From a virus (taxonomy: Duplodnaviria; Caudoviricetes), in IMG/VR virus record IMGVR_UViG_3300025392_000002: a stretch of DNA of 64,000 nt, one strand, 5' to 3'. This document shows, piece after piece, positions 35,936 to 48,874 of the stretch (its first letter is position 1; each line of letters begins with the position of its first letter). The translations under genes were made by a program, and so were the position numbers. Under the pieces are notes generated by a model. It saw only the letters and a list, made by a program, of their open reading frames with translations. It made no database searches and was not told the DNA's origin.

Positions 35936-36131
35936 TTAAGTTCCTACATATATTACTAATAAGATGATTGGGATTGGCTGAATTAGCATTGATACGCTCA
36001 ATGTCTTCTATGGCTGTTTCTACGAGTTCTAGTCTGTTGGTAGCAGTATAGTAGCGATCACGTAAGGTTGACGCTTGAAAGATGCTGACTAAGCCTGCTA
36101 GTAGTTTAACTAACCATATGTGTGTGTTCAT
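35919..36131 (-). CDS. Hypothetical protein
   Basis: Start MNTHIW just after TATACT. Confidence 0.5.
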   Translation of the reverse strand: MNTHIWLVKLLAGLVSIFQASTLRDRYYTATNRLELVETAIEDIERINANSANPNHLISNICRNLNDSRY

Positions 36132-36170
36132 ATAGTATATAGCAGAATAAATACACAATAGGAGACAGGT

Positions 36171-36644
36171 ATGACCGCACAAGAATATAGACAACTAGTT
36201 ACACGTTTGGATCAGATTGCAGAATCTGATCCAACGAAAGCATTAGGTGCAGTTAGTAAACTGGCACAGTGGTTAGAACGTCACAGTAGTAAAGATTCGG
36301 TGAAAAAACAGGCTCAATACTATGCTGATAAGTATCCTAGAGTACCCATAGGCCAGTTCAAAGGAACAATCAGCTGGCCCTTTGCCAATATGCTAGAGCG
36401 TTCAGGCATTATGGGTACTACACCGTTAGATAGTATGACTTTGAGTAGGGGCGGTTGGGCACCTAACGAAATTTTCTACAGGATGAGCAATGGGCAAATG
36501 CGGCTAACAGATGAACAGGCTTGGAAACTAATGCAAAGTATGGATGAAAGATATCAAGTGGATCCAGTCAAAGTAGAAAATGAGTTTAGGGCATTAGCTG
36601 CCAAATATGGTGTACCTACACAAGCTGTGGGTCCACAGCCCTAA
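36171..36644 (+). CDS. Late hypothetical protein
   Basis: TAAATA and SD AGGAG upstream; terminator at 36669-36695. Confidence 0.65.
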   Translation: MTAQEYRQLVTRLDQIAESDPTKALGAVSKLAQWLERHSSKDSVKKQAQYYADKYPRVPIGQFKGTISWPFANMLERSGIMGTTPLDSMTLSRGGWAPNEIFYRMSNGQMRLTDEQAWKLMQSMDERYQVDPVKVENEFRALAAKYGVPTQAVGPQP

Positions 36645-36668
36645 TACACAACAAATACGATACACTAC

Positions 36669-36695
36669 AAATGGGTCTTTAGGGCCCATTTTTTT
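36669..36695 (+). terminator. Rho-independent terminator
   Basis: AAATGGGTCT-TT-AGGGCCCATTT plus T-tract. Confidence 0.75.
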
Positions 36696-36729
36696 CTGCG
36701 CAAAAAAATTTGGGAAGTACTTACACTTT

Positions 36730-36912
36730 TTAGCGAAAATATTCTACATATACTGCTAGAGCGCATAGTAGAGCAAATATAATGGCGGGACTCCAAGCTT
36801 CTAATGGAGTCATGTCCTTATAACGATCAGCAGGATACCAACAGTCAAAATCTGGATCGTAGCGGTATGTGCGGCCACGTATTACTTCGGTTTGAGTGTA
36901 GAGTTCATTCAT
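36730..36912 (-). CDS. Small membrane protein
   Basis: MNELY..., C-terminal hydrophobic helix. Confidence 0.5.
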   Translation of the reverse strand: MNELYTQTEVIRGRTYRYDPDFDCWYPADRYKDMTPLEAWSPAIIFALLCALAVYVEYFR

Positions 36913-37108
36913 AATGACTATAGATCCATATAGAGACACGAGGTGCGACCCAATACACATAGTTAAAGACAATAAACCACGATACTAGCCAATTGGGAAG
37001 CCAGTGAGCTAGCGTAAGCGTACTATTAAGAGTAGTCATAGCTAGACTAGTTAATATGGTAACGAGACCAGAATTTGCTAGACTAGTCGATAAATGGGTG
37101 CGATTCAT
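36905..37108 (-). CDS. Small membrane protein (DUF2798-like, tentative)
   Basis: Hydrophobic, WLPNWLVSWFIVF. Confidence 0.45.
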   Translation of the reverse strand: MNRTHLSTSLANSGLVTILTSLAMTTLNSTLTLAHWLPNWLVSWFIVFNYVYWVAPRVSIWIYSHYE

Positions 37109-37313
37109 ACTAGTATATATGCTAGAACGAGGTACCTGCAGGATCTTTTAGGAACCGCGCGAAAATTTATAAAGAAGTACTTATACTTTTAGAGGGGTGT
37201 TTTTACTTCGGTACCCATGCGCTAGTTAGTAGTTACTAACTTGTTGCATGTATATGCCGGTCGGTGGTCAAAAAATTCTTTTATTATTGCCCTGGTCGGA
37301 GGAATATTTCTTC

Positions 37314-37506
37314 AAAAAAAAATCCCCTAACTGCCGGGAGCGAATCGGGCTTACGGTTAGGGGATCAAGAACCCATTGCCTTGTTGGCGTTGAGTTCTTA
37401 ACTACAGACTGGTTGCCGGGAGCGAATCGTTGGCCAGTCCTACTGCTGTACAGCTACAACTCTAGCGGCTGTATGCTGTACTATATACGCATTAGCTGTT
37501 AGAGTT
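37314..37506 (-). ncRNA. Four-hairpin 3' RNA/terminator with two loops complementary to the GGAGCGA leader motif
   Basis: 16-bp direct repeat TGCCGGGAGCGAATCG at 37332-47 and 37414-29, each inside a stem; terminal stem 37322-31/37356-65 followed by a U-tract on the minus strand. Confidence 0.6.
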
Positions 37507-38398
37507 AACGGCTAGTACGCATACATGTCATGTCAGCTACTGCCCGCCACTTGTCCGGGAAGCTGGCACGTAAGTCTGCAATCTTAAGTACTGTACGCAA
37601 GCTGAGCTCACGTACACGATCACTGTTAGACTTGACATAGTCTACTACCTCTAGCTTCTGGTAGTCCTCTAGCTCATACTCATCCAACATACCACACTCA
37701 GTTACCACTTGCTCAATGCGCAATAGCTTCTCACGTGTAGTGTCAATGGTAAGGTCCAAGTAGTGGCAACGGCTTTCTAATGCTTCCAAGTGATCACGCA
37801 ACTTCTTGCTCTTAACATGATCGAACTTGATGTTGGTAATAAAGATAGCACCGCCCTTGAACTCAAAGCTGTCGGGCACACCTTCACGGCGTAGCAATGA
37901 ACTATCTGTATTCCAACTAATGGTACGCTTCTTTGAACTGTCTAGTGCTGCCTTCAAGATGTTAAGGCTCAAGTCGTCCAACAAGATGCTGTCACAGTCG
38001 TCAAACACTAGGACATTCTTCTTGTCAGCAAAGTGATAGAGCTTACTGTACAAGCCAATCGCTGACATAGCGCCTTTGACTACTTCATACTTCTTCAGCT
38101 TCTGATCGTCAGCTACAGTAGCGAAGACATCATGCTTGCTGAGTACTTTCTCTACACCAAAGCTCTTGCCAACACCTGGAGGGCCTGTGACAATCATAGC
38201 CTTGACCTTGCCGCCTTTTACGGCACGTGTCATGTCATCCAAAATCTCAAACCTGTCACGCAAACGATCCATGATCTGTTCGTCTGTTTCGGCCGCCAAA
38301 GCCTTCTCTTTTGCCTTGATAGCTGTTTGATCTACTTCCAATGATTTAACTTCGCTCTGCAATGCCATAAGCATCTTTGATGTAACTACCTTACCCAT
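37505..38398 (-). CDS. AAA+ family P-loop ATPase
   Basis: GPPGVGKS, LVFDDCD, FITN, ALESRC. Confidence 0.85.
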   Translation of the reverse strand: MGKVVTSKMLMALQSEVKSLEVDQTAIKAKEKALAAETDEQIMDRLRDRFEILDDMTRAVKGGKVKAMIVTGPPGVGKSFGVEKVLSKHDVFATVADDQKLKKYEVVKGAMSAIGLYSKLYHFADKKNVLVFDDCDSILLDDLSLNILKAALDSSKKRTISWNTDSSLLRREGVPDSFEFKGGAIFITNIKFDHVKSKKLRDHLEALESRCHYLDLTIDTTREKLLRIEQVVTECGMLDEYELEDYQKLEVVDYVKSNSDRVRELSLRTVLKIADLRASFPDKWRAVADMTCMRTSR

Positions 38399-38470
38399 TT
38401 ATCGCTCCTTTACGCTGTGGATTAATATATTAATTATAACACGGAGTCGCCTCCGTGTCTATGTTTTTGG

Positions 38471-38794
38471 TTAATCTAGTCTGCTACCTGCATAGGCCTT
38501 GAGTCCCAGGGCCTGCAAGTAGTTGGCATAGGCATAGGCGCCTGCTTCTTTGATGTCGATGTTCTGTACGGGAAGTCCTGCTGGATCCCACATGCTGAGA
38601 CATTTTGGTTTGTAGTCCTTGCGGAAGCCTGCGGCCAATAGCTCTTTGGCCTGCTTTGAATTGGTACGGTCCACGTAGACCTCAACCCAAGCAAAGCCAC
38701 AAGCTCCACGGTCGCCGCCCCACTTGGCGTACTCTGCGCGGCCTGCTTGTTCTGCCAATACCTTACCTGCACGGATCTGTTCTGCTGTAATCAT
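38471..38794 (-). CDS. Early hypothetical protein
   Basis: Own promoter and AGGAGCGA SD; GACGFAWV...AYAGSRLD. Confidence 0.8.
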   Translation of the reverse strand: MITAEQIRAGKVLAEQAGRAEYAKWGGDRGACGFAWVEVYVDRTNSKQAKELLAAGFRKDYKPKCLSMWDPAGLPVQNIDIKEAGAYAYANYLQALGLKAYAGSRLD

Positions 38795-38836
38795 AAGTAT
38801 CGCTCCTTATTTGCTGTTGAAGTAGTAATTATACAG

Positions 38837-39127
38837 TTAAGCCAGCTCTTTGTCAACCAGGGTCAGCATGTTGGCAGGCACTCTCCACAGGCCCATGCCC
38901 GTGTTGACTGTGACGTATTTGATGGCCACTTTGGTTACGAACCCACGTGTCGCTCTGCCTGTCTTGCTGGATGTGAACTCTACGTTGTCGCCTACACGGA
39001 TCGAACGTTTGATCTGCTTGGCTAGGTTAGTACGGTTCCATTTGACTGCATCTATCATTGACGTCAACTCAGTGTTGGTCCAAGACTGTAGCATGATTGC
39101 TGAGTTTACTTCTTGAATGGTTAGCAT
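38837..39127 (-). CDS. Early SH3/KOW-like small protein
   Basis: Own promoter and SD; IRVGDNVEF...WRVPANML. Confidence 0.75.
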   Translation of the reverse strand: MLTIQEVNSAIMLQSWTNTELTSMIDAVKWNRTNLAKQIKRSIRVGDNVEFTSSKTGRATRGFVTKVAIKYVTVNTGMGLWRVPANMLTLVDKELA

Positions 39128-39170
39128 AGTATCGCTCCTATTTTCTGTTTAAGTGTTTATTATACTAGAT

Positions 39171-39257
39171 TTATTGCCATCCGTCAACCACTAGGATTGC
39201 TAGGAACATGACAATGACGGGGCTCATTAGGATGAGCAAGTTGATGTAAGCCTGCAT
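39171..39257 (-). CDS. 28-aa hydrophobic peptide
   Basis: MQAYINLLILMSPVIVMFLAILVVDGWQ, TAATG-coupled to the upstream gene. Confidence 0.5.
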   Translation of the reverse strand: MQAYINLLILMSPVIVMFLAILVVDGWQ

Positions 39258-39955
39258 TATGCTACCTCTTTCAAACGAATTACGAAACCGGAATAGTCCT
39301 TCTTAGCACGACCCTTGGCCTTGAGTCCAAGCATCACGCCCTTAGGGTCTAAGAAGCGCAAGTCTGTCTCATCAGCTGACGGAGTGCCTGCTGGGATCTC
39401 ATCATATACGGCTACGACTGACATACCTTGCATTAATGCTTCCGCTACATCCGAATCATTTCCGTCTGCCTTGCTGAATGTAAGGTGATAGTTCTTGTAC
39501 TTAGACACCTTACGACCGAGCACCTTAGTGTAGTCATAGAACTGTACATTAGGGAACAATTCAAAGATGTTCTTGTCGTTGATAGTGTACTTCTCCCAGC
39601 TCAAGTCGCTAGTACCATTCAAACGGAATACAGGGATCAAGCCACGCTTCTCAGCGAACTTGATAGCCTTAGTGATGTCTTCGTACAGATCCTGCATGAA
39701 GTAGTCACGGGCTTCAAAGAAGTACTTGGTCTTGCGGATGCGAGCCTTTTGGATCATATTGGTGTTCTCGCCCCGTTTGAACATACCGCCACGTCCGGCA
39801 GTGTTAAGGCAAGCGGCAGTACAGCCTGCGGTGCGCTTAGGGCAAGTCTCACGCCCTGACAAGTCTGCTGGTGCCAAATGTAGGATGAAAGACAGATAAC
39901 CCATCTTAGTACCTTTTTGGATCTTAGGGTTTGCTGTGGACAATAATTTAAACAT
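39257..39955 (-). CDS. GP88-like protein (Cys cluster, radical-SAM-related)
   Basis: CPKRTAGCTAACL, RLNGTSDL, FYDYTK, DETDLRFLD. Confidence 0.7.
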   Translation of the reverse strand: MFKLLSTANPKIQKGTKMGYLSFILHLAPADLSGRETCPKRTAGCTAACLNTAGRGGMFKRGENTNMIQKARIRKTKYFFEARDYFMQDLYEDITKAIKFAEKRGLIPVFRLNGTSDLSWEKYTINDKNIFELFPNVQFYDYTKVLGRKVSKYKNYHLTFSKADGNDSDVAEALMQGMSVVAVYDEIPAGTPSADETDLRFLDPKGVMLGLKAKGRAKKDYSGFVIRLKEVA

Positions 39956-40022
39956 AGTTTTCGCTCCTATTGTTTGCTGTTGATATGACTATTATACTGC
40001 CTTTTGGGTTGGGCGTCAACCA

Positions 40023-40253
40023 TTAATCCCAATCTTTCTTGCCGCCAAACTGTTCATTCCACTGGTAGCCTGCTAGGTAGGCTTGGATCTCACTGGGCGT
40101 CATTTGGCTTTGATCAATGCGCTCTGAAGTGCCAGTGCCTTCTGTATAGAAGTGAGGGTTGCGTGGACGATGATACCATGAATCTGCTGAGCCCCTATCA
40201 AAGGCTCCACCATGGCGGGTATCGTACTGCTCGCGGGTTAGTTCTTTAATCAT
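40023..40253 (-). CDS. Early hypothetical protein
   Basis: HGGAFDRGSADSWYHR...PH; coupled start with SD. Confidence 0.75.
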   Translation of the reverse strand: MIKELTREQYDTRHGGAFDRGSADSWYHRPRNPHFYTEGTGTSERIDQSQMTPSEIQAYLAGYQWNEQFGGKKDWD

Positions 40254-40582
40254 ACTGTCTCCTTAAGTGTCAATGTCTTAGCAGGATAAGTGATGGAACC
40301 TTCATACTCCAACTGTGACCGCTCAAATGGAGTCATGAAGCTATCCTCTACGATACCGTAGCCTACGATATACTGACGGCTACCAATGTCGTCCCACTCG
40401 ATCTGCTCACGGAGCACAAAGATCAACTCTTCGATGTGCTCTGCGCTAGGCTCCACTGAACCCAACTGATAGAAGAAGTCCTCACCACCTTTGAACTTCC
40501 AGTACTGTGGGCACTCACCTTGGCCGTCCCAATCATGGGCACCGTAGTTTTCCATGTATTGGGTAGTGATGTGTAGCTTCAT
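40250..40582 (-). CDS. Early hypothetical protein
   Basis: Own promoter and SD; TQYMENYGAHDW...YWKFKGG. Confidence 0.8.
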   Translation of the reverse strand: MKLHITTQYMENYGAHDWDGQGECPQYWKFKGGEDFFYQLGSVEPSAEHIEELIFVLREQIEWDDIGSRQYIVGYGIVEDSFMTPFERSQLEYEGSITYPAKTLTLKETV

Positions 40583-40649
40583 TAGGTTCGCTCCTTATTT
40601 GCTGTTGATGTTAGTATTATAGCAAGATTGGGCAGAGTTGTCAACACCT

Positions 40650-40723
40650 ATTTGCAAAATAGATCGGCCGAGTGGGCACCTAGATTACACGCCCAGCGAT
40701 GCCGTCCATCCCGTCGCCTTCGA
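40650..40723 (-). ncRNA. Candidate short hairpin RNA with GGGAUGGACG loop
   Basis: Consensus promoter 40730-58 with no SD-led ORF downstream; GC-rich stems. Confidence 0.4.
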
Positions 40724-40770
40724 ATCATAATTATACTGGATTGGGCGGGGATTGTCAAGTCGCCGAAACC

Positions 40771-40803
40771 AAAAAAAAACGACACATCTTTGGGACGTGT
40801 CGT
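40771..40803 (-). terminator. Rho-independent terminator
   Basis: ACGACACGTC-CCAAA-GATGTGTCGT plus U-tract on the minus strand. Confidence 0.8.
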
Positions 40804-40840
40804 CGTAGTCAACGTGTTGTATTTCTACAACACCTTTGTA

Positions 40841-41353
40841 TCAGTTTGCGCGGGCTAGTTCTTCAAATGAACTACACTCGTAGCCGTGAAACTTAACAAT
40901 ATGATCATAGGGTTTGTGATAACTGTATACTACTTTGCCCACGCCTGAACTAGGGTGAATGGTGATGTTGCGACTCCACATGCTCTTAGGCAAGAAATAG
41001 AATTTGAGTCCGTCTTTGTGGGGATTGTACACAGTACAGCGAAGGGCTCCTTCTTTACGACCACCGCCCGCTGTTTCAACTCCTGTAATTTCACCGCCAT
41101 AACTATTGCCACCGAGTTTAAGTGGATTAGCTCGTATGCTAGCAGTCTTAGAATCTGTGCCGTCGCTAAAGTCAGCATGATCGCCGTCGATGAAACGGTA
41201 TGGGCCCACTGCGGCAAGGCTTTCTTCAATTAGACGCTCTACATTAAAGATATCAGGGTGCTTGACACCGTACGCACGAAGATCCTTACTGGCCCGGAAT
41301 TCAGGATGATAAACACAGATTACATCTCTCATCAGTACTAGACTCTTTGACAT
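40841..41353 (-). CDS. Early hypothetical protein, possible PD-(D/E)XK nuclease
   Basis: VERLIEE...HADFSDGTDSKTAS; own promoter and SD. Confidence 0.6.
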   Translation of the reverse strand: MSKSLVLMRDVICVYHPEFRASKDLRAYGVKHPDIFNVERLIEESLAAVGPYRFIDGDHADFSDGTDSKTASIRANPLKLGGNSYGGEITGVETAGGGRKEGALRCTVYNPHKDGLKFYFLPKSMWSRNITIHPSSGVGKVVYSYHKPYDHIVKFHGYECSSFEELARAN

Positions 41354-41394
41354 GGTTCGCTCCTATGTGTTGTTTAAGTCTTAATTGTATAGCC

Positions 41395-41425
41395 AAAAAA
41401 TAACCCAGTCAACCGCTGGGTTATT
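41395..41425 (-). terminator. Terminator after the tRNA, overlapping the next -35 box
   Basis: AATAACCCAG-CGGTTGA-CTGGGTTATT-TTTT. Confidence 0.8.
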
Positions 41426-41428
41426 GAA

Positions 41429-41505
41429 TGGTGGGCCCACCTGGACTCGAACCAGGGACCAAAGGATTATGAGTCCTCTGCTCTAACCAACTGAGCTATA
41501 GGCCC
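41429..41505 (-). tRNA. tRNA with CAT anticodon, most likely tRNA-Ile2 (lysidine type)
   Basis: GGGCCTATAGCTCAGTTGGTTAGAGCAGAGGACTCATAATCCTTTGGTCCCTGGTTCGAGTCCAGGTGGGCCCACCA: full cloverleaf, encoded CCA, no initiator features. Confidence 0.92.
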
Positions 41506-41678
41506 TGATATCGTTTAACTTCTCTCAAGTCATCATCCTTGTCTTCCAGGATGTAGACTTCATCACAGAACTCTCGTTCGTTTTCTGCGATCTCTTCGGC
41601 TTCTCTAAGGGTGGGCACACACTCAATCAGCTCTTCATGCTGATCTCGTATGCCCCAGATCTCATACTGTAGAAACAT
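41496..41678 (-). CDS. Small acidic hypothetical protein
   Basis: 60 aa; stop codon lies inside the tRNA 5' end. Confidence 0.55.
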   Translation of the reverse strand: MFLQYEIWGIRDQHEELIECVPTLREAEEIAENEREFCDEVYILEDKDDDLREVKRYQGL

Positions 41679-41679
41679 C

Positions 41680-42027
41680 TTAGAAAGGAGCGTCTTCGTC
41701 CTCAGTTACCTTAGCAGTAGCTTTGACTGCTGGAGTCTTTGTTGCCTTGGTAGCAACAGGCTTGGAGACCTTAGCCTTAGGTGAGTTGTCTTCAATGTAT
41801 TCAGTGATGGTAGACTGCGCTACTGCATCAGCAAAATCTTCAAGACCTAGGATGATCTTAGCGGCATCCATCTTAGAGAAAGAACCTTCAAGATCTGCCA
41901 AACGGATGTCTTCATGGCCGCTCTTAGCGAGAACCTTGATACGCATCATATCGTTAGCAAAGCGAACTTTGTAGTCGCCATTGAGCTTGCTAATACCTGC
42001 AACTGTGAATAATTTATCTGTAGCCAT
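41680..42027 (-). CDS. Early hypothetical protein with Lys/Ala-rich tail
   Basis: Own promoter, SD GAGG; KVRFAND. Confidence 0.75.
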   Translation of the reverse strand: MATDKLFTVAGISKLNGDYKVRFANDMMRIKVLAKSGHEDIRLADLEGSFSKMDAAKIILGLEDFADAVAQSTITEYIEDNSPKAKVSKPVATKATKTPAVKATAKVTEDEDAPF

Positions 42028-42114
42028 TTGTTACCTCTATGTGTGTGTTAAAAAATATGTTATTGAGCCAATCTCTCTAACATGTTCAAATTATACAACT
42101 CTTTTGGTTAGTTG

Positions 42115-42378
42115 TCAACCATTTCTCTTCTGTTTTGGGCGAATTTTTGGTTGTTGCGTTTTCACAACATTCTTAAACTCCTTTTGAATATAGTATTCAA
42201 TCAAAGCTCTTTGAATCATAGTTACCAAATCAACTCCATGGTCCTCAGGACAGATAAAACGATACGGACTAGACTTCCAACTGCGTTCAGTAACGAACTT
42301 ATAATAGATCTGACGATGCTCTCGTAGACTAGGGTCAAACGCAACCAATGGCCTACTTAGGAATTCTAGTCTACTCAT
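42115..42378 (-). CDS. Early hypothetical protein
   Basis: ATGA-coupled start MSRLEF; RPLVAFDP...HRQ. Confidence 0.65.
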   Translation of the reverse strand: MSRLEFLSRPLVAFDPSLREHRQIYYKFVTERSWKSSPYRFICPEDHGVDLVTMIQRALIEYYIQKEFKNVVKTQQPKIRPKQKRNG

Positions 42379-42503
42379 TTGGCAAGAACCCACGCCCTCA
42401 CTACTTCTTCAAGGGCTGTAAATTTGTAGTCAACTGGCTTAGGGCGTACCTTAGCAGTCATCCTAGCATTATGCTCTAGGTTCTTTTCTTTATTGGTTTT
42501 CAT
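42375..42503 (-). CDS. 42-aa hypothetical protein
   Basis: Downstream of promoter 42533; MKTNKEK...AWVLAK. Confidence 0.55.
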   Translation of the reverse strand: MKTNKEKNLEHNARMTAKVRPKPVDYKFTALEEVVRAWVLAK

Positions 42504-42564
42504 TGCTGTTCCATTTGTTGTTGTTAAACCTAATTATACTGCCTTTTGGGTAGGCAGTCAACCA

Positions 42565-43137
42565 TTACTCTTCGGACTCTTCTTCGTATTCAGCAATGGA
42601 TTCGGAGATGCCCATGATCTCATCAAGATCTCTAGGCAGTTCTGTTTCTACCTGCTCCGATGTCATACCGCCCACTTCATAGTAGTCGTCACCATTCTCA
42701 TCATAGATACCAGCAAAGGCCATGCCACACTCATAGTAGAACGCCCTAAGGGTATAACCCTGCTCCATCAATGCTTCGTAGACTCCACAAGGAGGTGCCC
42801 AGGCTGAATCAAAGCCAAAGGTGATACCATTCTTGTCATGCTGGTCGTCATACTCTACCTTGTCGTAAGGATCCACATCCCACTTAGTTCCCCATTCGTT
42901 TACGCAGAAGTCATACCAGTTCTTGTAGCCATACTTCTCTTCGTTGATGACCTCTTGGGCCTCTAACTTCTTCTGATCGTCTGGATCACCAAGTTTGCCT
43001 GCTGTGATACCTAAATCTTCTGGAACAGGAATAGCAAAGTTACAGAACTTGCCTTCGTTAATGGCCTCAACCAAGGCATACATCTTGGCAGGGTCTTCGT
43101 GATTAATTTGAACTGTGTTATTGCACCAATTAGGCAT
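42565..43137 (-). CDS. DUF1281/YubB ferredoxin-like domain protein
   Basis: MPNWCNN, WYDFCVNEWGTKWD, FDSAWAPP, YYECGMAFAG. Confidence 0.75.
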   Translation of the reverse strand: MPNWCNNTVQINHEDPAKMYALVEAINEGKFCNFAIPVPEDLGITAGKLGDPDDQKKLEAQEVINEEKYGYKNWYDFCVNEWGTKWDVDPYDKVEYDDQHDKNGITFGFDSAWAPPCGVYEALMEQGYTLRAFYYECGMAFAGIYDENGDDYYEVGGMTSEQVETELPRDLDEIMGISESIAEYEEESEE

Positions 43138-43309
43138 TGTCGGCTCCTAGGTTAATTACTTGGGTTGTCTGATATTCGAAACTCTTAGTCTGGGGTCTAA
43201 CATCTCCCAAAGACAGGGCAAAGATGTCCTCTGCCTCGTCTTGATCCTCTGCTTCTACCACGCCTTCGTAGTAGACTTCTTCATAGGCTGTCACTTGGAA
43301 CTTGGGCAT
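43130..43309 (-). CDS. 59-aa acidic hypothetical protein
   Basis: MPKFQV...VEAEDQDEAED; SD GGGAG. Confidence 0.55.
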   Translation of the reverse strand: MPKFQVTAYEEVYYEGVVEAEDQDEAEDIFALSLGDVRPQTKSFEYQTTQVINLGADNA

Positions 43310-43310
43310 C

Positions 43311-43577
43311 TTAGACTCCCATTTCGTAAAAGGTTACTGAAGGATCAATGCTGAGCAATTCCTCAGCACAACGAGTAAGATTACGCATCTTGGAACGAAC
43401 CACTGACTGAGGCAGTTCGCCATCGCAGGTAAGGTTCTCTGGGCTCATCTCGCTGTCAATGTAGTTGGCAATAGCCTGGCGATCTGCACCGTTCAACAAG
43501 CTCAAAGGCTTTTGGTTGAATACGGCACGCCATTTGTTCTTGTTCTCTACATACTGCTCTAGTGTGCTAATGTTCAT
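43311..43577 (-). CDS. Early hypothetical protein
   Basis: MSPENLTCDGEL motif; own promoter and SD. Confidence 0.75.
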   Translation of the reverse strand: MNISTLEQYVENKNKWRAVFNQKPLSLLNGADRQAIANYIDSEMSPENLTCDGELPQSVVRSKMRNLTRCAEELLSIDPSVTFYEMGV

Positions 43578-43616
43578 AAAGTTCGCTCCTTATGTGTTGT
43601 TGAAGTAGTTATTATA

Positions 43617-43865
43617 CTAGATTTTACGGATCTTGTCAATAACCATGTTCGCTTCCTGGTTATTGCTTAGGGCTAGGTTAGCCTCTAGATCTAGCTCTTG
43701 GGAGCGTAAGAGTAGCTCACGACTGTAAGCGTCCATGAGCTCTTGGGCATAGATCTTGTCATCTTCGTCGGCCTGTGCAAACCAAGCCTTAAAGTCATCG
43801 CCCTTAGTGTTGAGCAAGAACTCTAGGTTGTCCCTGTCCCATTCGTTGGTGATTAGGCCTTTCAT
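43617..43865 (-). CDS. Early hypothetical protein
   Basis: DRDNLEFLL...W...DDKIYAQEL. Confidence 0.7.
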   Translation of the reverse strand: MKGLITNEWDRDNLEFLLNTKGDDFKAWFAQADEDDKIYAQELMDAYSRELLLRSQELDLEANLALSNNQEANMVIDKIRKI

Positions 43866-44005
43866 TCGTCGCGTCCTTTGTGTTTAGGGTTGCGTTTAAA
43901 TGCTTTCTTGTTTTCCACCCGCTTAGGTTTGAAGGGTGTATTCTCACAGAAGAGCACGAAATGTGCTCGGGTCTTCTGTGGTATTTTTACAACGATCTTC
44001 ATCAT
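43862..44005 (-). CDS. 47-aa basic hypothetical protein
   Basis: Own promoter and SD; PFKPKRVENKKAFKRNPKHK. Confidence 0.6.
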   Translation of the reverse strand: MMKIVVKIPQKTRAHFVLFCENTPFKPKRVENKKAFKRNPKHKGRDE

Positions 44006-44052
44006 GTGCTCCTGTCTGTATAAATGTATTATACAACCAAAAGCTCAAAATG

Positions 44053-44226
44053 TCAAGCGCCGTAATACGTTGTTTCGTCCTGCTCAATGCCGTTGAGTTG
44101 CATCCATGCGTAGACATACTCTACAGGCACATCTAGGGTCTTGGCAATGTTCTTTTCAGTCAAGCCCTCGATGTACAGTTGTTCAATATCATAGGCATAC
44201 ATATCTAGTTCAGCCATCTTACTCAT
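44053..44226 (-). CDS. Small HTH-like protein
   Basis: LYIEGLTEKNIAKTLDVPVEYV. Confidence 0.6.
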   Translation of the reverse strand: MSKMAELDMYAYDIEQLYIEGLTEKNIAKTLDVPVEYVYAWMQLNGIEQDETTYYGA

Positions 44227-44434
44227 CAAAGCTCTCCTCACCCATCTCTGTTACTTTCTCTTCCACAACGCCAAGGTCGACGATGCGGGCTGTTTGATCT
44301 GTATTGCTTACACCTTGGAAGGCTGTGCGGAATGACTGATTCTCTGCGAGGAAATCAAACACATCCTCACGAGCCCAGCTATCGGGTACCTCAAGCTCTT
44401 GTATCAATAGCGTTTCAACTCTAACTGTTTTCAT
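44219..44434 (-). CDS. Hypothetical protein
   Basis: SD AAGGAG before MKTVRV. Confidence 0.6.
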   Translation of the reverse strand: MKTVRVETLLIQELEVPDSWAREDVFDFLAENQSFRTAFQGVSNTDQTARIVDLGVVEEKVTEMGEESFDE

Positions 44435-44487
44435 ACCAGCTCCTTTAAGTTTAGCAAGGGCCTGAGCCCTCTTTGATTGAAACCCTG

Positions 44488-44979
44488 TCATTCTGCACAC
44501 TCTTTTGGATCGAGCTTGGCAATAGCTGGGGCAAGTTTCTTCCAACGCTCGCCGTTGCGCTTGTAGTGCCACTCGCCTACTGTGTAGTCGCTTGCCTTAG
44601 TATACTTGAAGACATAGTAGTAGTCGCTCCAAGTATAGTGATCGCAAGCCTTAGCAAGTGTATCAAACACTTTAAAGCCAACGTCTGCTTCGCCTCTGTC
44701 GCGTCCGTAAAATGTACAGGAGTCGCCGTGCTCTGCTTCGTAAGCCTCTTGCTCTTCCTTAGTCAAATCAAATGTGCTGAATGCGTGTTGTACACCAATC
44801 TCTTTGCGCAAGCTACTCAAGTCGCCCAGGGCAATCAAGTTGTTGACTTTAGGGCTTGCTGAATAGTGTTTCTGCAAGATAGCGCCGTTGTGTTCCAAGT
44901 ACCCATCCCAGTGGCAGTAGACTGCGCGAACTGTTTTGTTGTAAGGGTTTTGAATAGCAATCATTGAACGTGTACCCAT
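44488..44979 (-). CDS. Conserved phage early hypothetical protein
   Basis: MGTRS...VYCHWDGY...FYGRDRGE; own promoter and SD. Confidence 0.8.
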   Translation of the reverse strand: MGTRSMIAIQNPYNKTVRAVYCHWDGYLEHNGAILQKHYSASPKVNNLIALGDLSSLRKEIGVQHAFSTFDLTKEEQEAYEAEHGDSCTFYGRDRGEADVGFKVFDTLAKACDHYTWSDYYYVFKYTKASDYTVGEWHYKRNGERWKKLAPAIAKLDPKECAE

Positions 44980-45038
44980 TTGCTCAGCTCCTTGTGTGTT
45001 TGTGTATGTGTTTATTATAGCGCCTTTTGGGCACCCAG

Positions 45039-45257
45039 TCAACCTTCAAGCCAACAATCCCTGGCCAGCTCTGTGGTTATTGTTTCGCCGCCGATGTAGT
45101 CCCCATGGAACCCGCTTGGGCTAATACTTTCCAGGACTAGGGCCTTGCCTGTGTAGCTCTGCTTGATCTCTACAATCTTGCCCGATTGCTCAATGTCGCA
45201 TTTGAAATTGACAACATCTCCTACAGTGACCTCTTGTCCGTCTACCAGTGCTTTCAT
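45039..45257 (-). CDS. Hypothetical protein
   Basis: VGDVVNFKCDIEQSG. Confidence 0.65.
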   Translation of the reverse strand: MKALVDGQEVTVGDVVNFKCDIEQSGKIVEIKQSYTGKALVLESISPSGFHGDYIGGETITTELARDCWLEG

Positions 45258-45424
45258 TCTGCCTCCGCTGGTTCAAACATACGAGCACCCATGTCCATAA
45301 AGACGTCAAATGTCTTAAGGAAGTCCTCATCGTACTTGTGACGGTTAACTTTGATGGCAAACAGGCCTACTAGAAGGTCTCCATTGCCTACTTCTTTCGC
45401 TACTTTTACCAGATGATCAAACAT
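45254..45424 (-). CDS. 56-aa hypothetical protein
   Basis: Own promoter and AGGAGCGA SD. Confidence 0.65.
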   Translation of the reverse strand: MFDHLVKVAKEVGNGDLLVGLFAIKVNRHKYDEDFLKTFDVFMDMGARMFEPAEAE

Positions 45425-45489
45425 AAGTTTCGCTCCTTATTGTTACTGTTAAAAATATATTATACAACCAAAATCAGTTACTGTCAACC

Positions 45490-45815
45490 AGGGATGCTAC
45501 AAGGTAGCTTATCATCGTTTGACCCCAGCGACAGTAATTAGATTGGGCGGGCAGAGCGTGCTCCTCGTTTAATGTTCAGCCCACTGGCCAACACCCTGTA
45601 ACCGTACAGTTAGGGAAGAACTAAAGGGGCTCCGGACTAGGCGCTAGTACCGTCTACTAGATCGTCTGCCTTCGCTATTACTGCCTACTTACTATCGCCG
45701 CTTCTCCGAGCCTAAGCCCTGTTTCATGCCCCAGTTCAAGCGTATCCGTCGATACTGTCCTCTACCTGGGCGCCTAGCGATGTAGGTAACCTTTAATGCT
45801 TTCCTAACTGTCTAT
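45490..45815 (-). ncRNA. Unassigned structured RNA of about 325 nt
   Basis: Consensus promoter 45822-50, no SD-led ORF, at least six nested helices. Confidence 0.7.
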
Positions 45816-45854
45816 GTGCTTATTATAGCACATAGACCCTAACCTGTCAATAAC

Positions 45855-45926
45855 CTATTGTTTTGGACGGTCTTTACAAACTTCAAATCCCTTCCAGTGC
45901 CACTTTCTGCAATAGGTACATTCCAT
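45855..45926 (-). CDS. 23-aa Cys/His peptide
   Basis: MECTYCRKWHWKGFEVCKDRPKQ with own promoter and AAGGAG. Confidence 0.55.
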   Translation of the reverse strand: MECTYCRKWHWKGFEVCKDRPKQ

Positions 45927-45994
45927 TGTCTGCTCCTTTGTTGCTAAGTCTTTATTATAGCGCCAAACGAGCAGACTGTCAATAACCTTTCAAT

Positions 45995-46333
45995 TTACTC
46001 AACTTCTTCTTCATCCACTTCGTTCAAGTAGTCAAAGCATTCTTGTACACGACTTGACTCTGTGTTGAAGAATGTATAGTCTCCACAGACCATGCGTCCT
46101 TCACCCTCTTTGATGTACTCAAAGCCACCATAGTAGTCAATAGCACTGGGAGAGTTTTGGACAGCAATCACTTCCTCATCCCTATCAATGTACACAGGAC
46201 CACAGCGTACATCCAGACCCAACTCTGTAGGACTGCATCGTTCCATCTTGCGTACATGACGCTCCACAACCTCGTTGACTGCGTCAATCATGTCCAATGT
46301 GCTGTCAAAGTCTGTATCAGTAAAGTAACCCAT
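45995..46333 (-). CDS. Early hypothetical protein
   Basis: LGLDVRCG, DYYGGFEY; own promoter and SD. Confidence 0.75.
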   Translation of the reverse strand: MGYFTDTDFDSTLDMIDAVNEVVERHVRKMERCSPTELGLDVRCGPVYIDRDEEVIAVQNSPSAIDYYGGFEYIKEGEGRMVCGDYTFFNTESSRVQECFDYLNEVDEEEVE

Positions 46334-46389
46334 TTGGTTCGCTCCTTAATGTGTTTAAGTGTTAATTATAGCACCATCTAGCCAAACTG

Positions 46390-46599
46390 TCAACCGCAAA
46401 ACACTTCTTTAGACAAGATCCGGTCCTCAACCAGCTCGTGTGCCAAGTTAAGGGCCATAGTGGCTACGGTGATAGCAATAATGCGCTCTTGCCCATTAAA
46501 GCGTTGACAGTACTCCATCAGCTGGTCCAAGCTCTCTGGGGTTGCAAACAATCCGGTCTTTGGGATTGGGTTTTGAACAACGTCGTAAATGCCTGACAT
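46390..46599 (-). CDS. Early hypothetical protein
   Basis: Own promoter and SD; NPIPKTGLFATP. Confidence 0.7.
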   Translation of the reverse strand: MSGIYDVVQNPIPKTGLFATPESLDQLMEYCQRFNGQERIIAITVATMALNLAHELVEDRILSKEVFCG

Positions 46600-46656
46600 A
46601 AGTATCGCTCCTTTTGTTAGTTGATGTTAGTATTATAGCTGAATCTGGGTTACCTG

Positions 46657-46875
46657 TCAACCAAATGCCTTGAATAACCCTACTAGGCATATGGCTATTG
46701 AAACTGCATTTGTTACTAGTTGTGGAGTGTTGCGCACACGTATGCTCCACACCAAGTAACATGCCCCTCCAAGTACTCCAGCCACAATGTTCCAGGGGTA
46801 CTGGTTCATTGACATTAATGCGTACATGGCAAGGAAGCAGGCAGTGCCCGCCCACTGTATTATGCTATTAAACAT
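46657..46875 (-). CDS. Small 3-TM membrane protein
   Basis: IQWAGT...YPWNI...LVTN. Confidence 0.65.
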   Translation of the reverse strand: MFNSIIQWAGTACFLAMYALMSMNQYPWNIVAGVLGGACYLVWSIRVRNTPQLVTNAVSIAICLVGLFKAFG

Positions 46876-47254
46876 CAATGCACTCTCTCCAAACGGTGTA
46901 CAAGTGTGCTTCGTCCAAACGCTCAAGTCCTGCTAAAAACTTGGCACCCACGTCCAAGCTAACGTACTCGTCATCCTGCATACCCTGCTCGCTGTACTCC
47001 ACGTCCATAGCTTCTGCTTCTGTAAAGCCAATTGTCTGCAAGTACACACGTAATTGAGCTTTGAATAGCGGGTCTGTGTAAATTAATCCGTCTACTGTAC
47101 AGTCCCAGCTAGCAGGGCTAAAGTGTACGCACAGCTCGCCAAAGTCCTTCTCAACGTTGCAGTACTGCAAGCGCAGTCCAGTAATGTCTACACGGGCCTG
47201 CTTGCGTGACCAGTAGCCGGTACCGCTTGTTTGTAGTGTTGTAAAAACATTCAT
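46868..47254 (-). CDS. Early hypothetical protein
   Basis: GTGYWS, DGLIYTD, YSEQGMQ; own promoter and SD. Confidence 0.75.
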   Translation of the reverse strand: MNVFTTLQTSGTGYWSRKQARVDITGLRLQYCNVEKDFGELCVHFSPASWDCTVDGLIYTDPLFKAQLRVYLQTIGFTEAEAMDVEYSEQGMQDDEYVSLDVGAKFLAGLERLDEAHLYTVWRECIDV

Positions 47255-47285
47255 AAGTTTCGCTCCTTAAAAAACAATTATAACA

Positions 47286-48400: not shown

Positions 48401-48874
48401 GAAAAGTGCAGAAAAGTGTGACAAAGTGTGATATTGTGTGACAGAATCGGGATTATGATGTGGAATCAGGCCTGGGGACCATCAGGTTACGGTAGAAACA
48501 ATTTGGAATGGTCTGGCTGAGACAGGCATAGCGCAAATACATACTCGCGTACAGCGGGGTCTTATGCATTCGAGTGCATACCCTCATATACCATCATGCT
48601 ACAGCGGGGTCTATTATACTATATGTCAGCTATATACTAATACACACTAGGAGCGAACCATGCGTGTATACTGTTATCAAACTTGGGCAGACAAGCCTAC
48701 ACAAGAACAGCTTTGGCTATGTAGTCTACATGTATGTGCGTTGCCCGCAGGCTCTGCACGTTTCTATATACGTGAAGACCGTTTATCCTTTGCTCACATA
48801 TTGGATCCCCACATGCGTCATATAAGAAGTTTGGACTACTATGAATAACTGTGCGTATGCTAACAGCGGGGTCT
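48401..48874. repeat. 10-bp phased tandem repeats and three ACAGCGGGGTCT direct repeats
   Basis: GAAAAGTGCA/GAAAAGTGTG/ACAAAGTGTG/ATATTGTGTG at 48401-40; 12-mer at 48551, 48601, 48863. Confidence 0.75.
48660..48848 (+). CDS. Hypothetical protein
   Basis: AGGAGCGAACC leader directly before ATG. Confidence 0.6.
   Translation: MRVYCYQTWADKPTQEQLWLCSLHVCALPAGSARFYIREDRLSFAHILDPHMRHIRSLDYYE

Follow-up and report, generated by a model that had tools for sequence, protein, structure and literature searches.

A conserved pair of hairpins behind a phage AAA-ATPase gene points to an RNA switch on phage protein synthesis

The 3' UTR of an AAA-ATPase gene from an uncultured freshwater giant phage of the class Caudoviricetes carries two hairpins that display the same loop, AUUCGCUCC, which is the complement of GGAGCGA(A), an extended Shine-Dalgarno (SD) motif found in front of early genes of the same phage. 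We analyzed 64,000 nucleotides of the virus record IMGVR_UViG_3300025392_000002 (hereafter the window, to which coordinates refer unless a locus is named). Judged by its relatives and by database searches, the element is real and widespread and is without a family in Rfam or in the literature searched, and it points to an RNA switch on phage protein synthesis. In the following, GGAGCGA at ribosome-binding sites (RBSs) is called the tag and hairpins with the complementary loop are called anti-tag hairpins.

Results

Two anti-tag hairpins follow the AAA-ATPase gene

The AAA-ATPase gene (37505-38398, minus strand, from the ORF list; 297 aa) is the last gene of an early array. Its product shows weak Pfam AAA_16/AAA matches, matches phrog_1250 (E 4e-84) and has relatives in more than 1300 phage records. 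The element is the 3' UTR of this gene, and all of its hairpins are on the minus strand. A hairpin without the anti-tag motif comes first (GUACAGC...GCUGUAC, 37448-37481, from the centroid fold); its pairs are kept in 8 relatives and it could be a processing or stabilizing stem. In the anti-tag hairpin H1 (37406-37440), the outer stem GGACUGG/CCAGUCU is separated by a conserved internal loop, CCAA/GCAA, from one inner C-G and one G-C pair, which carry the 9-nt loop AUUCGCUCC at 37419-37427. The middle hairpin (37367-37399) with the conserved tip GCC-AACAA-GGC is present in only some relatives, in which the tip reads GCC-AACAA-GGC-AAUGG (columns 126-165 of alignment A4). The anti-tag hairpin H2 (37314-37363) has an outer stem CCCCUAAC/GUUAGGGG and an inner stem CCG/CGG below the loop AUUCGCUCC at 37337-37345, so that in both anti-tag hairpins the loop sits atop an inner stem of 2-3 bp. 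H2 is also an intrinsic terminator, its G+C-rich stem standing directly before a U9 tract (37304-37312, minus strand); a simple terminator scanner overlooked it because of a loop limit of 8 nt. The initial annotation had described four minus-strand hairpins, two of them with the same 16-mer at their tips. The shared 16-mer was borne out, the second hairpin that carries it being the terminator, and H1, the middle hairpin and the terminator stand, whereas the first conserved hairpin lies at 37448-37481 and not at 37458-37506.

The 16-mer, TGCCGGGAGCGAATCG, occurs in exactly two copies (plus strand 37332-37347 and 37414-37429) where 0.05 were expected, and two copies were reached in none of 100 shuffles. 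Fold energy beat that of shuffled sequences on both strands (z -3.5 on minus, -4.7 on plus). With a covariance model H2 scored 61.6 bits, and H1 and H2 were the only two copies of the unit in the window. The predicted probability that the loop is unpaired is 0.94 for H1 and 0.70 for H2, in which an alternative AGC/GCU pairing partly closes the loop (0.15 at three positions); in H1 of the L006 type, UUCG/CGAA could close the loop to a tetraloop. As expected of a seed region, the loop is thus invariant, predicted to be accessible and complementary to the RBSs of its putative targets.

Searching the whole window against Rfam 15 at gathering score returned only tRNA-Met and no family for the element. 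A conserved promoter for the hairpin RNA itself was seen neither at the locus nor in relatives. A weak sigma70-like match, TTAACT-17-TATAGT (9/12; 37480-37508, minus strand), overlaps the AAA stop codon and could provide the hairpin RNA with a start of its own; it is not kept in relatives. Right after the terminator, relatives share a second conserved intergenic block (window 37150-37300, minus strand), which comprises a G-rich stretch, CATATACAT, a covarying hairpin (stem GTTAGTA..TACTAAC here, CTGTTG..CAACAG elsewhere) and then GCGCATGGGTACCGAAGTA and CTATAAGTACTTCTTTATAA(A/T)TTT. Downstream minus-strand genes may have their late or middle promoter here, together with a structured leader; on the plus strand of the block, UAC-UUCG-GUA would form a C(UUCG)G tetraloop.

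The tag marks ribosome-binding sites of an early promoter array

The window has 17 copies of GGAGCGA where 2.6 would be expected, and none of 100 shuffles reached 17. In 12 of 12 tagged genes, 11 on the minus and one on the plus strand, the tag lies 3-5 nt 5' of the ATG. The eleven minus-strand RBSs (38402-47266) each stand behind a consensus sigma70 promoter, and their complement TCGCTCC starts on the plus strand at 38402, 38800, 39132, 39961, 40588, 41357, 43583, 45430, 46339, 46605 and 47260. The plus-strand copy at 48650 is part of the RBS GGAGCGAACCATG (48650-48662) of a gene diverging from the array. All coordinates that the initial annotation had given for the minus-strand copies, and its tagged plus-strand gene, were thereby confirmed, and the 7-8 nt complement between loop and leader that it had proposed was found for 12 leaders in the window. 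The leader of the AAA-ATPase gene is itself tagged (AAGGAGCGAUAAAUG, 38402).

A longer, repeated early cassette ends in the tag; it consists of TTGACA-17-TATAAT, a short A/C-rich leader and (A/U)AGGAGCGA(A/U). Twenty cassette promoters lie on the minus strand between 38433 and 47797, 11 of them with the tag; the others have GGAGCAC, GGAGCAG or GGAGCTG leaders or drive no ORF. Terminators at 40778-40804 and 41399-41425 are internal to the array. The latter is a terminator-like hairpin behind a tRNA-Met (CAT) gene (41429-41505, minus strand) that lies within the array. One of the tagged early genes (39257-39955, minus strand) belongs to the GP88 family (PF17338, E 3e-38).

Stem covariation and strand signals identify a minus-strand RNA

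A search with the AAA protein returned 80 IMG/VR loci from freshwater metagenomes, some of them on contigs of 265-356 kb. Nearly all loci down to about 65% AAA identity have two TCGCTCC copies 30-160 nt past the stop codon and GGAGCGA leaders upstream, and in nearly all relatives a U-tract follows H2 or a further hairpin. Starting from 11 seeds, a covariance model collected 56 hairpins, of which 49 were distinct, and the H2 figures come from the resulting alignment, which is fitted to this model. Across these 49 relatives, 98.5% of the cells of H2 are paired, versus 59% after shuffling. All eight outer pairs (8/8) have changed on both sides while the inner CCG/CGG is invariant, and the covariation score is 0.909 versus 0.157 (0/500 shuffles), with slid controls at or below 0.30. 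The hairpin tip CCGAUUCGCUCCCGG is thus constant in about 50 distinct IMG/VR relatives, with compensatory changes at every outer stem pair. H1 was recounted in an ungapped MAFFT alignment of 23 sequences that was not fitted to any model. Here 98.6% of the cells are paired versus 70% in shuffled sequences, double changes are found at 7 of 7 outer pairs, and the covariation score is 0.764 versus 0.214 (slid controls at or below 0.16). The internal loop of H1 is conserved across relatives as CCAA/GYAA.

Fold energies of both strands, computed for 104 hairpins, gave no decision as to the coding strand (47 versus 55) and were replaced by counts of pairs and of G-U pairs with the loop held open. Counted in this way, G-U pairs of H2 number 55 on the strand of the gene and 17 on the other, and the outer helix of H1 has 11 G-U pairs versus at most 3 non-pairs. 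For the whole of H1 the G-U count is reversed (69 on the gene's strand, 99 on the other) because the conserved internal loop CCAA/GYAA would close by wobble pairs on the plus strand. Only the minus strand has a U-tract behind the hairpin, the plus strand showed no sigma70-like or TAAATA promoter pointing into the region, and a plus-strand terminator lies upstream of the region at 36669-36691. Together, these signals indicate that the RNA is a minus-strand 3' UTR. The better folding of the plus strand, noted at the outset, holds for this single sequence and not across the family. On this comparative evidence, the element is a conserved structured RNA encoded on the minus strand.

The hairpin occurs behind other genes in a fixed orientation

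Scanning IMG/VR with the 14-mer of the tip returned the AAA-linked pairs, two further classes, C and D, and chance matches in GC-rich contigs. Both classes have a single hairpin with a separate terminator after it, and the gene in front is a conserved 90-aa gene in class C and a conserved 100-aa gene in class D. Two large genomes of another lineage, G011 (280 kb) and G018 (353 kb, 98% complete), each contain a hairpin of class C and another of class D. Whether behind the AAA, the 90-aa or the 100-aa gene, the hairpin always lies between stop codon and intrinsic terminator with AUUCGCUCC on the transcribed strand. Judging from these placements, it is a module that moves among genes while its orientation stays fixed.

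Most single 14-mer matches lay in coding sequence of GC-rich contigs and were set aside as chance. A tandem (GGGAGCGAATC)x5 in L380 and L397, considered as a sponge, sits inside an ORF of an unrelated contig and was likewise dropped, and a marine AAA clade (L202-L277) was uninformative for covariation, its genes being followed by plain terminators or by the next gene, with no tag. A further hairpin class with the stem UGACCCGA/UCGGGUCA and the loop UUCGCUCCCGAG was seen in more GC-rich viral contigs (GC 0.48-0.50; L373, L378, L379, L382, L394, L401, L411 and others), which suggests that the anti-tag motif extends beyond the AAA-linked family. In L285, L287, L293, L297 and many other loci of the search with L074, a Cys-rich gene (C..W.GP...C.....GK.YC..HY), which we take to resemble the C-terminal part of GcrA-type regulators, directly follows the AAA gene; phages of this kind have hairpins behind other early genes. 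Megablast of 36000-40000 against GenBank phages gave no match. Among named phages, Pseudomonas phage PA5oct encodes the closest AAA protein (47% identity); its AAA gene is followed by other genes, with no such hairpins annotated.

Hairpin and tag occur together

We compared hairpin and tag across deduplicated loci of at least 9 kb. At least two tagged leaders were found in 52 of 52 loci with a hairpin, where 55% of the SD-bearing leaders are tagged, and fewer than two in 61 of 63 loci without one, where 3% are tagged, all counts being uncorrected for kinship. On the AAA tree the two traits change only 4-5 times, which leaves 2-5 independent pairs, all in the same direction and too few for a sign test. 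G001-G003, which are near-complete genomes, have their tags concentrated in the array adjoining the hairpins.

The initial annotation had also proposed to compare related phages for covariation between loop and leader motif. In L074 and L279 a second tag, AGCGAGG, is present and the loops AUCCUCGCUCC complement both tags. Their close relative L280 has AGCGAGG as 7 of 10 tags, one GGAGCGA and no UCGCUCC hairpin, while L281 and L282 have GGAGCGA tags and AAUUCGCUCCUC loops. Directly behind the AAA stop codon of L074 (6790-6830) and of L279-L282, outside any hairpin, there is also a conserved motif, UACCCUCGCUC, that is complementary to the second tag AGCGAGG and to GAGGGUA. In clades with GGAGCA(N) leaders, no matching hairpin was found within the fetched loci. 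The core of tag and loop is invariant, so that classical covariation is confined to two small cases, the L074 group and a late leader of G001.

Late leaders of relatives are complementary to the whole tip

In G001, G002 and G003 the 10-mer ATTCGCTCCC occurs only in the hairpins and in one late leader, where it has the opposite sense. Such leaders consist of a T4-type late promoter TAAATA, 8-16 nt, (C/U)CGGGAGCGAAUCG(G), 0-4 nt and AUG. The arrangement is common to five large relatives with one copy each (G001-G003, G011 and G018), the last two sharing the three-part layout despite a different gene order, and about 20 more late leaders of this layout came from two 14-mer scans. The late leader CCGGGAGCGAAUCG(G) is perfectly complementary to the hairpin of the same genome over 13-17 nt. 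One compensatory change was found: the leader of G001 reads UCGGGAG and its H1 CUCCCGA, while the other four genomes have CCGGGAG and CUCCCGG. Same-genome matches in the bases flanking the 11-nt core were seen in G001, G003 and G011. The window contains no such leader, which in this phage would have to lie elsewhere in the genome, and a search for late leaders matching the variant loops of the L074 group returned only the loops themselves, the records being fragments of 6-32%.

Behind the late leaders lie genes for envelope proteins, namely a CsgF-like secreted protein (PF10614, phrog_35372), a DUF4337 membrane protein and a 93-aa membrane protein (phrog_18771); genes with fully complementary leaders are L199:2065-2649, L200:2075-2662, L201:1729-2007 (minus strand), L082:705-1151 (minus strand) and L093:12457-12936. 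The gene headed by this late promoter-leader cassette differs from phage to phage. In H2 the inner stem never varies while the outer stems change freely, which would fit a stretch whose letters are read by pairing with the late leader. The 3' C of the loop stands opposite A in most early tags (AGGAG, not GGGAG), and the tip therefore appears to suit the late leader better than the early ones.

Duplex energies were predicted for the 15-nt tip, as the whole 202-nt 3' end gave uninterpretable long duplexes. They amount to -13 to -14 kcal/mol with tagged early leaders, -9.6 to -9.9 kcal/mol with untagged leaders and -30 to -33 kcal/mol with late leaders. A standard 16S tail is predicted to pair less strongly with the tagged leaders (-6.5 to -9 kcal/mol) than the tip does.

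Discussion

We consider a 3'-UTR anti-RBS RNA that pairs with tagged leaders to be the best reading of these data, and we hold it to be somewhat more probable than its opposite. The 3' end of the AAA-ATPase transcript would be a regulatory RNA module of two hairpins, the second one also serving as terminator, and the loop AUUCGCUCC that each displays would base-pair with RBSs bearing the phage-private SD extension GGAGCGA(A). Its target in cis would be the tagged leader of the AAA mRNA itself, and its targets in trans the other tagged early mRNAs, over 7-8 bp. In related genomes the mRNA transcribed from the late promoter for an envelope protein would be a further target, over 13-17 bp of its leader. 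Pairing would cover the SD sequence and the spacer up to the start codon and thereby keep ribosomes off, and the loop-leader duplex may in addition be a substrate of RNase III. We infer that the RNA accumulates and pairs in the cell, as well as the repressive sign and the timing of its effect.

Counting against this reading, the anti-tag RNA shares promoters and timing with the mRNAs that it would repress, and pairing with the early leaders extends over only 7-8 bp. The idea that the RNA accumulates from read-through of the array needs a qualification too. With terminators inside the array (40778-40804 and 41399-41425), transcripts reaching the 3' end probably start at no more than the final five or six promoters, which makes an input from the whole array doubtful.

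Other explanations have to be weighed against the anti-RBS reading. The hairpins might be sites for a phage or host RNA-binding protein that reads the loop, such as a factor in processing, stability or termination, with the tag serving, for example, a RegB-like nuclease that requires bases 3' of GGAG and the complementarity being a by-product. An invariant loop and inner stem and the internal loop CCAA/GYAA of H1 are typical of protein sites, and RegB of phage T4 cuts at GGAG in early initiation regions, where the bases 3' of GGAG matter (PMC3014915). A by-product would, however, be unlikely to show exact complementarity of 7-8 nt to some twelve leaders and of 13-17 nt to the late leader across five genomes that have two gene orders, and in the L074 group and G001 the variants of loop and tag shift together. 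Neither RegB (PF10715) nor RegA (PF01818) was matched in G001-G003, in a search whose control genomes likewise gave no match and which thus had no positive control. We regard this protein-based explanation as unlikely, and the remaining three as much less likely again. One of them takes the motif to act as double-stranded DNA, CCGGGAGCGAATCGG being an operator or stoperator for a DNA-binding protein of the phage, placed just past the late promoter and where the early operon ends. It would account for the same 14-15 bp site occurring in both orientations, promoter-proximal in the late case and at the operon end in the other, since a duplex DNA site reads alike on either strand. Such a site needs no inverted repeat, yet every copy outside the leaders sits in the loop of a varying but complementary stem; the G-U pairs of the stem make sense on one strand only, the orientation to transcription is fixed in all hairpin contexts, and the 7-nt early tags would be only half sites. 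This makes a DNA site improbable.

Slightly more improbable still is an ordinary terminator or mRNA-stabilizing 3' structure whose loop is kept by descent or gene conversion and matches the tag by chance. H2 is a textbook intrinsic terminator, and structured 3' ends shield mRNAs from exonucleases. The loops, however, are invariant down to about 65% AAA identity while the stems turn over completely, and neither H1 nor the class C and class D hairpins are terminators. By chance, a conserved 11-nt loop would contain the complement of a given 7-mer in about 3 cases out of 10,000, and the hairpin co-occurs with the tag. Hardly credible, finally, is the decoy that the initial annotation had offered as an alternative, in which plus-strand RNA hairpins would display GGAGCGAAU to a leader-binding protein or to 30S subunits. 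It draws on the better plus-strand folding of the window (-82 versus -68 kcal/mol), on the H1 internal loop that would close with G-U pairs on that strand (the 69 versus 99 above) and on a tip identical to the late leader. The outer-stem G-U counts nevertheless favor the minus strand (H2 55 versus 17; H1 11 versus at most 3), the U-tract is on the minus strand only, and the region has the plus-strand terminator at 36669-36691 and no sigma70-like or TAAATA promoter leading into it, so that the decoy is disfavored. Stem covariation, fixed orientation and co-varying variants, as read from the sequences, argue against all four explanations.

Among known RNAs, the cuckoo/CcsR sRNAs of Alphaproteobacteria (RSs0680, alpha-r14) are closest in architecture; they consist of 2-4 hairpins with variable stems and an identical anti-SD-like loop, CCUCCUCCC (PMC4615179). 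The phage element shares adjacent hairpins, here the two anti-tag hairpins and one or two others with covarying stems, and one identical C-rich anti-SD-like loop in each anti-tag hairpin. It differs in that the loop is AUUCGCUCC in all relatives and not CCUCCUCCC, that this loop complements the private extension GGAGCGA rather than a generic SD, and that the element is phage-encoded with one hairpin being the terminator. The whole window gave no match to the cuckoo family at Rfam 15 gathering score, and nothing points to common descent. By this comparison the element is an analogue of the cuckoo RNAs and not a member of their family. In placement, the nearest parallel is icaR mRNA from Staphylococcus aureus, in which UCCCCUG in the 3' UTR pairs with the mRNA's own SD, blocks initiation and creates an RNase III substrate (PMC3868564). 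The AAA mRNA likewise has the tag in its leader and two UCGCUCC loops in its 3' UTR. In contrast to icaR, the phage motif is duplicated and held in hairpin loops, and some twelve other mRNAs besides a late one share the tag, which would lead one to expect action in trans on a regulon.

The c4 antisense RNA of phages P1 and P7 is a processed RNA whose short exposed sequences pair with the RBS region on an mRNA from the same promoter and block translation; c4 is released from the 5' portion of its transcript and controls one operon (icd/ant) in the immunity of these temperate phages. It resembles the RNA proposed here as a phage-encoded RNA with short sequences directed against an RBS, but is not known to use a tag common to many genes. 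RsaE/RoxS and the hairpins of RNAIII in Firmicutes use a UCCC-type loop motif to pair with the SD of several mRNAs; unlike the phage element, they are host-encoded, have their own promoters and address generic G-rich SD sequences rather than a private tag. The T4 endoribonuclease RegB and the repressor RegA switch off many early mRNAs via their RBS regions, which is an analogy of function only, as both are proteins and not RNA.

The known means by which lytic phages time gene expression are proteins, namely sigma factors, RegA and RegB. Our literature search found no phage RNA of the present kind, and a trans-acting phage RNA that addresses a set of its own mRNAs via a private RBS tag is apparently undescribed in the literature searched. 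It is possible, though on balance doubtful, that a freshwater giant phage group runs a private tag/anti-tag RNA network in which an early RNA damps early translation and holds back a late protein by loop-loop pairing. Such a network would be an RNA-only temporal switch doing the job of RegA and RegB in T4. The element is short, sharply defined and present in hundreds of environmental contigs, with predicted targets, and is therefore directly testable. If the proposed mechanism is true, the phages would provide a natural orthogonal tag/anti-tag pair for translational control and a marker of early genes for uncultured giant phages, and would also hint at what the late envelope proteins do, the synthesis of which seems to be under special control.
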